A stretch of 64,000 bases of DNA from an uncultured Gammaproteobacteria bacterium (GTDB lineage: Bacteria > Patescibacteriota > Microgenomatia > Woykebacterales > RBG-16-39-9b): contig CAYHXX010000003.1 in NCBI GenBank assembly GCA_964360785.1, positions 22,911 to 86,910 on the forward strand. The letters are read 5' to 3'. The notes beneath the pieces are model-generated. The model saw nothing but the letters and a program-made list of their open reading frames with translations, was not told the DNA's origin and did not search any database. Both the position numbers and the translations under genes were made by a program. The number at the start of each line of letters is the position of its first letter. Position 1 is the first letter of the stretch. Positions 14,661 to 15,455 of the stretch are shown in pieces.

Positions 14661-15455
14661 ATGAAATCTGCCATAAGAGCGTTCAGCTCAATACTGCTAT
14701 CTGCTCTACTGCTTTCTGCTAGCGCAACCTTTGCCTTTTCCCAAGGTATTAATCAAGTGGCTTACAATGTGGTTGTTGCAGAATCAGATGCAGAGACTGG
14801 GAGTATAGTCTCATTCAAAAATGGTCAATACGAACTCAGCAAAGCGGAATATGATACAGGAGTATATGGAGTTATATACTCTGATGCACAAGTCGCCCTC
14901 GGAAAGATTACTGTTGCAACCAAGCCGGTTGTAGTAAATGGAGAAGCTTTAGTAAAAGTTGCTACTAGTAACGGTGAGATAAAAGCAGGGGACTTGGTAA
15001 CTACCTCAAAAGATAAAGGAATAGGTCAGAAAGCAACAAAATCCGGACATGTACTGGGTAAGGCACTGAAAGATTTTCCAAACTCAGAAGCTTCGGGAAA
15101 TAATGGAGTGGTTCCGGTATTAATAAATGTTAGTTACAACCAAATCTCTTCTAGCTCAGAAGCTTTAACTGATCAGGGTCTCGATCAGGTGGCCAAGAAA
15201 GTTTCTAGCTCAATAGTTTCCGGAAACATTCCCAATCTTCTTAAGTACATATTTGCTCTGTTGCTGGGAGCTATAAGCTTCTTTGTCGGCTTATCACACT
15301 TTGTCCGTAGCAACCGAACGGCAGTGGAAGCAATCGCCAGAAACCCTTTGGCAAAAGCTGACATTCAGCGGCAACTATTTTTTGGAACTGCTGGAATACT
15401 TGTAGTGTGTGGTATTGGGTTAGCAATATCAGTGTGGATATTACTATTCTTGTAG
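14661..15455 (+). CDS. Fusion protein: signal peptide, then the conserved giant-protein C-terminal module (...[52 protein letters not shown]...INVSYNQ), then a C-terminal F-ATPase c-subunit-like two-helix hairpin without the conserved Glu/Asp.
   Basis: C-terminal 70 aa [62 protein letters not shown] aligns to c-subunit GxGxG...IARQP-loop...QxxFIGxALVEAL, but the carboxylate position is Leu/Val. The N-terminal domain aligns to the C-terminal about 100 aa of all four giant proteins. It lies directly upstream of atpF. Confidence 0.6.
   Translation: [264 protein letters not shown]

Follow-up and report, generated by a model that had tools for sequence, protein, structure and literature searches.

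A c-subunit-like protein without its ion-binding carboxylate, fused to an extracellular domain, heads an F-type ATPase operon in Patescibacteria

Among the described systems closest to the gene reported here are subunit c of the F-type ATP synthase (AtpE, PF00137) and the Type 3 F1-like X0 ATPase of mycoplasmas. In canonical c-rings the R-Q/N-P loop of the c hairpin touches gamma and epsilon, and mitochondrial c also carries 'ARNP'. Some rings, such as that of Acetobacterium woodii with its c1 subunit (PDB 4bem) and those of the V-type proteolipids, include hairpins without the ion-binding carboxylate, and these rings still move ions past subunit a. The Type 3 ATPase (MMCAP2_0575-0581), first described in 2012, is needed for the surface MIB-MIP system, and one of its X0 proteins combines a signal peptide and an ectodomain with two C-terminal transmembrane (TM) helices (bioRxiv 10.64898/2025.12.04.692339, and the 2012 work cited there). 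We examined the first gene of an atp cluster in a window of 64,000 nt (the whole stretch analysed; positions 22,911 to 86,910 of contig CAYHXX010000003.1, assembly GCA_964360785.1) from a member of the Woykebacterales (Patescibacteriota), the source sample being 0.1-μm-filtered Hainich groundwater. We observed that its 264-aa product joins an extracellular beta domain to a C-terminal c-subunit hairpin in which leucine stands at the carboxylate position. The existence of such a carboxylate-less c-like fusion protein, noticed earlier in a sequence-only reading of the same DNA, is confirmed.

The reading frame is uninterrupted and free of frameshifts (Table 1), and a word-index search yielded 64 homologues of 222-282 aa, nearly all of which span 82-100% of the query. 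This family of full-length homologues excludes the alternative that two genes had been joined by a frameshift, and the earlier claim of a single gene is upheld. As read from the sequence, K2 and R6 make the n-region of the predicted signal peptide basic, its core is hydrophobic, and the residues at -3 and -1 are small. Cleavage by signal peptidase I is likely at A-F-S|Q, where the consensus of the family reads F-A-Q, and the 'AQ' at the end of the h-region is conserved in the family alignment. Basic residues are found around the hairpin loop (R216, R219, R227, K232 and R237). Together, the predicted signal peptide and the basic loop (by the positive-inside rule) place the ectodomain outside and the loop inside, as in c subunits, and this is consistent with the topology that had been proposed. 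The AlphaFold2 (AF2) monomer model of the protein has a mean pLDDT (predicted local distance difference test) score of 89.5. The linker helix is less confident, with block means of 56 (residues 161-170) and then 74 and 83 (residues 171-190).

We further evaluated the relationship of the hairpin to subunit c. The search with PF00137 (ATP-synt_C) that the sequence-only reading had suggested was negative, as a direct Pfam scan gave no match to the 264-aa protein at E<=1, and because of this the homology had to be sought with family profiles. Five c-subunit models of NCBIfam matched residues ~182-262 weakly (E 0.001-0.03), with 14-19 bits against cut-offs of 44-130, which places the protein outside these curated families. 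A profile made from the last 79 residues of 24 family members was then compared with all PDB sequences, and the nine best matches were c subunits (E 6.6e-7 to 2.3e-3, the best being 2wie_A). The PDB matches also included chains of 4bem. In an hhalign comparison with nine canonical c subunits the hairpin scored a probability of 95.9% (E 5.7e-9). The hairpin hidden Markov model (HMM) also found three bona fide c subunits, encoded in tandem in the Bacillota locus L010 (E 4e-11 to 1e-9), and in the reverse direction an HMM of canonical c matched the fusion proteins (E 6e-7 to 7e-3). The predicted structure of the hairpin superposes on c subunits at 1.1-2.1 Å. The C-terminal hairpin is a c-subunit homologue, as had been claimed, although by threshold and by its lack of a carboxylate it lies outside ATP-synt_C.

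Every alignment sets D61 of Escherichia coli and E62 of Spirulina on Leu247. Among 216 diverse relatives this column holds L, V, I, A, F, S, T or G and is acidic in none, and only one relative has any D or E in the core of helix 2; the replaced carboxylate and the lack of an acidic residue in helix 2 were both described correctly in the sequence-only reading. The polar loop that it had noted is R-N-P here, and is invariant (216/216). A loop that is kept while the ion site is lost is the pattern expected of an ion-uncoupled rotor. In comparison with AtpE, the two-helix hairpin, the R-N/Q-P loop, the position of both termini outside and the profile homology are all shared. Unlike AtpE, the family lacks the carboxylate throughout these 216 members, has mostly lost GxGxGxG, has no subunit a partner in the operon, and has gained at its N-terminus a cleavable signal peptide, an extracellular beta domain of ~135 aa and a linker helix. 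It also differs from the rings of A. woodii and of the V-type enzymes, since every c-like copy is without the carboxylate here and only some of the hairpins are there.

The genomic setting is also that of AtpE, as the c-like gene stands immediately 5' of the genes for a b-like protein, delta, alpha, gamma and beta. It is the first of a co-directional run and occupies the atpE slot; upstream lie 217 nt and then the divergent gene for a giant protein, G1. The b-like protein has a single TM helix in its N-terminal part, is helical over a long stretch and carries the conserved motif DHExLVxxALExAKKD in its C-terminal part. Alpha carries the Walker A motif GDQKTGKT and the arginine finger SVSRVG, and beta the Walker A motif GGSGVGKT, the catalytic GERIRE, DNVYR and a DELSEED-like GELSPED; judged by these motifs, alpha and beta appear catalytically intact. 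The true start of beta is probably the ATG at 19091 (database copies have 460 aa), and that of epsilon is probably the ATG at 24793. Epsilon had been overlooked in the sequence-only reading; it is present but displaced, 4.3 kb 3' of beta, with genes for a secreted fn3/CarboxypepD_reg/AhpC-TSA protein, a 7TM-dCache protein and a response regulator in between. It is flanked by two single-domain response regulators (24387-24767 and 25123-25494, 40% identical). The retention of delta and of a b-like stalk argues that there is still torque to be resisted. Among the window proteins scanned we found no match to ATP-synt_A or ATP-synt_C, and the canonical-c HMM detected nothing besides the fusion protein in the six-frame translation of the window. 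The earlier statement that the cluster has no canonical atpE or atpB therefore extends to the window scans. The gap of 36 nt between the c-like and b-like genes contains an RNA hairpin, GACAAGG..CCTTGTC (-15.8 kcal/mol for the 61-nt region, z = -2.5). We considered this hairpin (15458-15478) as an element that tunes stoichiometry, and dropped the idea as it is not conserved in ten related loci.

Residues ~33-167 of the c-like protein match a module in three of the giant proteins encoded nearby, G2, G3 and G4, where it starts about 210-320 residues ahead of the C-terminus. The sequence-only reading had assigned a signal peptide followed by this module to the c-like protein, which the sequence features and the blastp and HMM matches bear out, and the pair of segments given as its example was traced to G3 (44% identity over 52 aa). 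It had placed the module in all four giant proteins; this stands for G2, G3 and G4, and for G1 the C-terminus lies beyond the window. G1 (2-14443, minus strand) has 4814 aa in the window and 5801 aa in the source contig, and the module was not found in the 4814 residues. In the giant proteins a cytoplasmic domain at the N-terminus is joined through a single TM helix to a huge ectodomain. The N-termini of G1, G3 and G4 (13544-14443, 53300-54199 and 56920-57819, all minus strand) share an apparently cytoplasmic domain of ~100 aa with the motif YNRLRYYIK.GLLP, followed by the single TM helix; the N-terminus of G2 is unlike these. G3 and G4 had no Pfam match.

The predicted model of the ectodomain is nearest, in BFVD, to the C-terminal barrels of phage fibre or 'preneck appendage' proteins (E ~1e-10). 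The predicted fold resembles the C-terminal autochaperone or Peptidase_G2-type domain of phi29 gp12 (the pre-neck appendage), although the ectodomain had no significant Pfam or PHROG sequence match. In PHROGs nothing was found for the c-like protein or for the C-termini of G3 and G4, and G2 had one match of unknown function. Unlike in gp12, the beta domain is N-terminal and membrane-tethered, and is not a C-terminal domain cleaved off a fibre. The likeness to phage fibre barrels suggests an oligomerisation or folding-type module and not a recognisable adhesin. The capsid decoration or cement proteins that share this fold are trimeric. The core of the ectodomain is strongly conserved (G110, D111, T114, S116, G120, Q123, K124 and A125). 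A giant-protein gene is found divergently upstream of the operon in the window and in two related loci, L014 and L019, and nearby in L015. The module common to G2-G4 and the adjacency of giant-protein genes together point to a link between the operon and the surface proteins.

Table 1. Coordinates of the c-like gene, its parts, the ATPase operon and the shared module in the window
Feature	Position	Strand	Details and evidence
c-like fusion protein gene	14661..15455	+	264 aa, ATG 14661 to TAG 15455; ORF (open reading frame) list and sequence
Predicted Sec signal peptide	14661..14741	+	aa 1-27; read from sequence
Extracellular beta domain (predicted)	14748..15155	+	aa ~30-165; phage gp12 C-terminal barrel / capsid-decoration fold
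Linker helix, ectodomain to membrane hairpin	15150..15221	+	aa 164-187; AF2 secondary structure, pLDDT blocks
c-subunit-like helical hairpin	15228..15452	+	helix 1 aa 190-227, helix 2 aa 229-263
R227-N228-P229 cytoplasmic loop	15339..15347	+	aligned with RQP of canonical c subunits
Leu247 codon CTT	15399..15401	+	at ion-binding Asp61 (E. coli) / Glu62 (Spirulina) position; alignments
b-like peripheral-stalk candidate	15492..16094	+	200 aa; position and architecture
delta (OSCP)	16091..16618	+	PF00213 E 1.1e-5, over gathering score
alpha	16620..18107	+	PF00006 E 7e-60; TIGR00962 386 bits, under 484 cut-off
gamma	18111..18983	+	PF00231 E 2.2e-12
beta	19061..20473	+	TIGR01039 459.5 bits vs 462.85 cut-off
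Short epsilon, beta-sandwich domain only	24772..25107	+	phmmer with related-locus epsilons E 6e-38 to 1e-10
Shared module in G2 (2510 aa; gene 34662-42194, minus strand)	35316..35624	-	HMM E 7.7e-24; blastp E 3e-13
Shared module in G3 (1103 aa; gene 50888-54199, minus strand)	51296..51598	-	HMM E 5.7e-19; blastp E 8e-9
Shared module in G4 (984 aa; gene 54865-57819, minus strand)	55297..55674	-	HMM E 5.1e-21; blastp E 4e-10

We also evaluated how widely the fusion occurs. At E<1e-30 an exhaustive profile search yielded 752 cluster representatives (50% identity), and at E<1e-3 it yielded 22,988. Among the 150 best library representatives, 148 have 230-346 aa, and the remaining two (4272 and 1543 aa) match in three stretches each, best over the module region. 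The full-length members have no Pfam assignment in the precomputed columns and no functional name given by the source. A locus search with a narrow alignment yielded five genome and three metagenome loci. All of the 14 independent loci, which belong to Microgenomates or WWE3 Patescibacteria, have the gene order c-like, b-like, delta, alpha, gamma, beta; epsilon was present in 13, and in 12 related loci epsilon lies directly 3' of beta. The gap between the c-like and b-like genes was 5-44 nt in 10 of the 11 loci measured. Subunit a (PF00119) was absent from the precomputed Pfam assignments of all nine loci with gene tables, and a crude AtpB search found no AtpB-like ORF or signature motif within about 10 kb in any of the 14. 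The beta subunits of L015-L019, which were fetched through beta homologues, are only 60-65% identical to that of the window. In L015, L016 and L017 the neighbourhood of LeuRS, ComEA, ComEC and ArgRS recurs, suggesting that the operon has been inherited vertically at a single place in the chromosome.

Carriers by name are Woykebacteria RBG_13_40_15 and a Curtissbacteria genome, and truncated family members are labelled Levybacteria, Amesbacteria, WWE3 or 'Patescibacteria group'. The records of the metagenome-assembled genomes behind L006-L008 are titled Gammaproteobacteria, Nanoarchaeia or Saccharimonadales; these are probably mislabels, and the titles were not used for taxonomy. Public gene calls often cut family members to 60-140 aa (P0341, P0342, P0393 and others), and the Curtissbacteria copy (L018, 1200-1982) was skipped entirely by the gene caller. 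We considered the matches of 60-140 aa as stand-alone short c-like proteins and rejected this, as they are truncated members that start inside the ectodomain. JGI already labels some of these truncated copies automatically as 'F0F1-type ATP synthase membrane subunit c', and one copy carries PF00137; both agree with the c-subunit homology. Our full-text literature searching found no description of the fusion, of the carboxylate loss or of F-type operons without subunit a in bacteria of the Candidate Phyla Radiation (CPR). For the rhodopsin-encoding Saccharibacteria, by contrast, the clusters are reported to be complete, with c subunits that bind H+ (bioRxiv 10.1101/2022.02.13.480300).

In six loci (L007, L008, L014, L019, L020 and the window) the operon is followed by the pair of genes for the fn3/AhpC-TSA secreted protein and the 7TM-dCache protein. 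The latter was considered as a substitute stator and rejected as a core part, since it is present in only about 6 of the 14 loci. In L001, a distant relative, alpha and gamma are separated by inserted genes for a response regulator and a histidine kinase (10010-11529).

Among the systems described so far, the mycoplasma Type 3 F1-like X0 ATPase may be regarded, by analogy, as the nearest functional counterpart. Both have an F1-derived alpha/beta/gamma/epsilon motor that shows no recognisable Fo path for ions and that is linked to surface proteins, in Type 3 genetically and functionally (MIB-MIP), and the architecture of the 264-aa protein fits MMCAP2_0577 by its description (signal peptide, ectodomain, two C-terminal TM helices). 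Type 3 differs in having a 12-TM protein and a small cytoplasmic protein, in having no delta or b, and in an alpha-like subunit without the delta-binding helix. It occurs alongside a canonical F1Fo, and its alpha and beta are a separate lineage, whereas in the CPR system delta and a b-like stalk are retained and the core lacks a 12-TM partner. On the models for MSC_0619 and MSC_0618 the alpha and beta of the window score 238 and 364 bits against cut-offs of 520 and 570, and they score higher as canonical atpA and atpD.

There is also a likeness to the Type 2 gliding motor of Mycoplasma mobile (MMOB1660/1670), an F1-type ATPase that is thought to power very large surface 'leg' proteins, in parallel to which giant membrane-anchored proteins of up to 5801 aa adjoin the operon here. 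The M. mobile motor differs in that it consists of cytoplasmic dimer chains and has no c-like ring. The window alpha and beta fall below the cut-offs of the glide family (329 against 600 and 346 against 850 bits). The window proteins are likewise outside the N-ATPases (the alternate F1Fo type), with 14.8 against 130.85 bits for TIGR03322, 353 against 750 for the alternative alpha and 402 against 752 for the alternative beta.

The interpretation that we favour, at a probability of roughly 0.55, is that the c-like gene encodes the rotor-ring subunit of a derived, ion-uncoupled, ATP-driven F-type machine that serves the cell surface. The interpretation offered in the sequence-only reading, in which a c-ring-like assembly would display the module on its outer face, is supported in every element that we could examine. 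The c-like copies would form a membrane ring on the gamma/epsilon foot, and F1 would hydrolyse ATP and turn or twist this ring against the b/delta stalk. As there would be no ion path, the energy would leave as mechanical movement of a crown of extracellular beta domains, which would act on cell-surface partners, most likely the giant fibre proteins encoded next to the operon, which are anchored by their N-termini and contain this module too. Expression or activity may be tied to the interleaved two-component sensors. Such a machine would resemble the mycoplasma surface ATPases in function, but would have arisen independently from a canonical F1Fo operon. A bolder version, in which the sole F-type ATP synthase of Microgenomates and WWE3 has become an ion-blind, ATP-burning rotary actuator whose ring would pass F1 torque through the membrane to a rotating or twisting crown, which would work the giant fibres for attachment to host cells or for movement on them, is offered tentatively, and we consider the odds to be against it.

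Several points weigh against the rotor-ring interpretation. We infer, and do not observe, the assembly of a ring, its binding to gamma and epsilon, its rotation, its target and the genome-wide absence of atpB and atpE; the searches covered the window and ~10 kb around the genes, and canonical atpB or atpE may be encoded elsewhere in the genome. The GxGxG helix 1 reported in the sequence-only reading did not hold up, as GxGxGxG is mostly lost: Gly210 is conserved and the other motif positions are bulky, position 203 being small in most sequences inspected (203 and Gly210 align with glycines of the motif). The similarity of the b-like protein to subunit b is not significant (E 0.022 for the NCBIfam B' model, and E 0.068 for a PDB subunit b amid coiled-coil noise), and because of this its name rests on position and architecture. 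Without subunit a as an evident fixed point for the b-like stalk, the machine need not yield net useful torque. The module of the giant proteins sits close to their C-terminus, a long way in sequence from the N-terminal membrane anchor, which makes direct contact with a membrane-proximal crown speculative, and since giant proteins are common in these genomes, their adjacency to the operon may be weak evidence. The structural relatives of the ectodomain, which we take to be trimers, fit a ring of arbitrary stoichiometry awkwardly.

Some of these points would suit a passive anchor, in which the c-like protein would do no more than fix an F1-type ATPase to the membrane or envelope, with no force passed to the outside; the ectodomain would fasten to the wall or to an oligomeric scaffold, and the ATPase would act in the cytoplasm as a regulated hydrolase or chaperone-like motor. 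The missing subunit a and ion site, the lack of an evident stator anchor, and an ectodomain of structural or oligomerising fold in which no catalytic or ligand-binding family was detected all agree with this. A simple tether, however, needs neither an invariant R-N-P (216/216) nor a full gamma/epsilon rotor with a delta/b-like stator, and the strongly conserved core motif of the ectodomain implies a specific interaction, so that we regard the anchor as unlikely, though deserving of serious thought. More doubtful again is a sensing role, in which an idling motor is braked when the crown contacts a surface, a host cell or a wall polymer, and the change in load is read by the neighbouring two-component systems, much as the flagellar motor acts as a surface sensor. 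The window epsilon does lie between two response regulators, close to 7TM-dCache, CHASE4 and PAS-histidine-kinase genes; the insertion in L001 and the response-regulator and/or kinase genes after epsilon in L003, L014 and L019 are of the same kind. However, there is no known path from F1 load to a histidine kinase, and the Cache and CHASE domains, being extracellular themselves, suggest ordinary ligand sensing that controls the operon. L005, L016 and L017 have no adjacent two-component genes, and L015 has a GerE-type regulator only.

Two further explanations are disfavoured. A synthase or ion pump that is still chemiosmotic, with subunit a encoded elsewhere and non-canonical ion binding in the ring, could draw on alpha and beta being near canonical (beta is just under its cut-off, Table 1) and publicly annotated as F0F1 ATP synthase, and on searches that covered the window and the surroundings of the loci but not the rest of the genome. 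Against it stand an ion site that is acidic in 0 of 216 relatives, a helix-2 core with D or E in one, and the absence from all 14 loci of atpB, which lies upstream of atpE in canonical bacterial atp operons. Moreover, we know of no rotary ATPase that moves ions without a ring carboxylate, and we consider this explanation quite improbable. The least credible is that the operon is the decaying remnant of an ATP synthase and the fusion protein has no function. Patescibacteria genomes are indeed heavily reduced and many are without respiratory chains (PMC8672522), but at least 752 clusters at the 50% identity level belong to the family, some residues are invariant in each half of the protein, the frames and catalytic motifs are intact, and the gene order is kept across lineages whose beta subunits are 60-65% identical. 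This conservation of sequence and order indicates purifying selection and argues against decay.

The rest of the window was also inspected. The secreted protein and the 7TM-dCache protein form a cassette that is duplicated in tandem (20518-24356 and 25595-29455). The first protein (~750 aa) has fn3, Big_13, CarboxypepD_reg and a C-terminal AhpC-TSA thioredoxin-like domain, its copies being 39% identical; the second (~533 aa, copies 51% identical) has seven N-terminal TM helices, a dCache domain and a final TM helix, without an output domain. At 29460-32935, genes for a CHASE4-domain membrane protein (378 aa) and a MASE6-PAS-HisKA-HATPase_c kinase (778 aa) close the co-directional 18-kb block that the c-like gene opens. 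An IS200/Y1-type transposase gene (33391-34050) lies between this block and G2. At 42465-44497 are two adjoining GDSL-lipase proteins, each with a terminal type I dockerin, which is unusual for a Patescibacteria genome; L016 also encodes a PA14-dockerin protein. ComEA and a ComEC split into 'Competence' and metallo-beta-lactamase genes are found at 57873-60553, flanked by LeuRS and ArgRS. Rfam and tRNA scans of the window were empty.

Metabolic reconstructions routinely count genes of this kind as F-type ATP synthase (e.g. PMC8672522). If there is neither an ion site in the ring nor a subunit a, these lineages cannot make ATP chemiosmotically or energise the membrane with this enzyme, and their physiology and dependence on hosts would read differently. 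If the actuator reading is true, this 'ATP synthase' does not use a proton gradient to make ATP and does not set one up, and a transmembrane mechanical output of this kind would, to our knowledge, be new for an F-type rotary motor. The family is large, has no Pfam model, and comes with a predicted structure of high confidence. With a c-ring kept for mechanics alone and given an extracellular domain, it would amount to a natural experiment, and the long-standing idea that rotary ATPases are general generators of torque would become directly testable. It would also connect the giant surface proteins of CPR bacteria, themselves enigmatic, to a source of energy.

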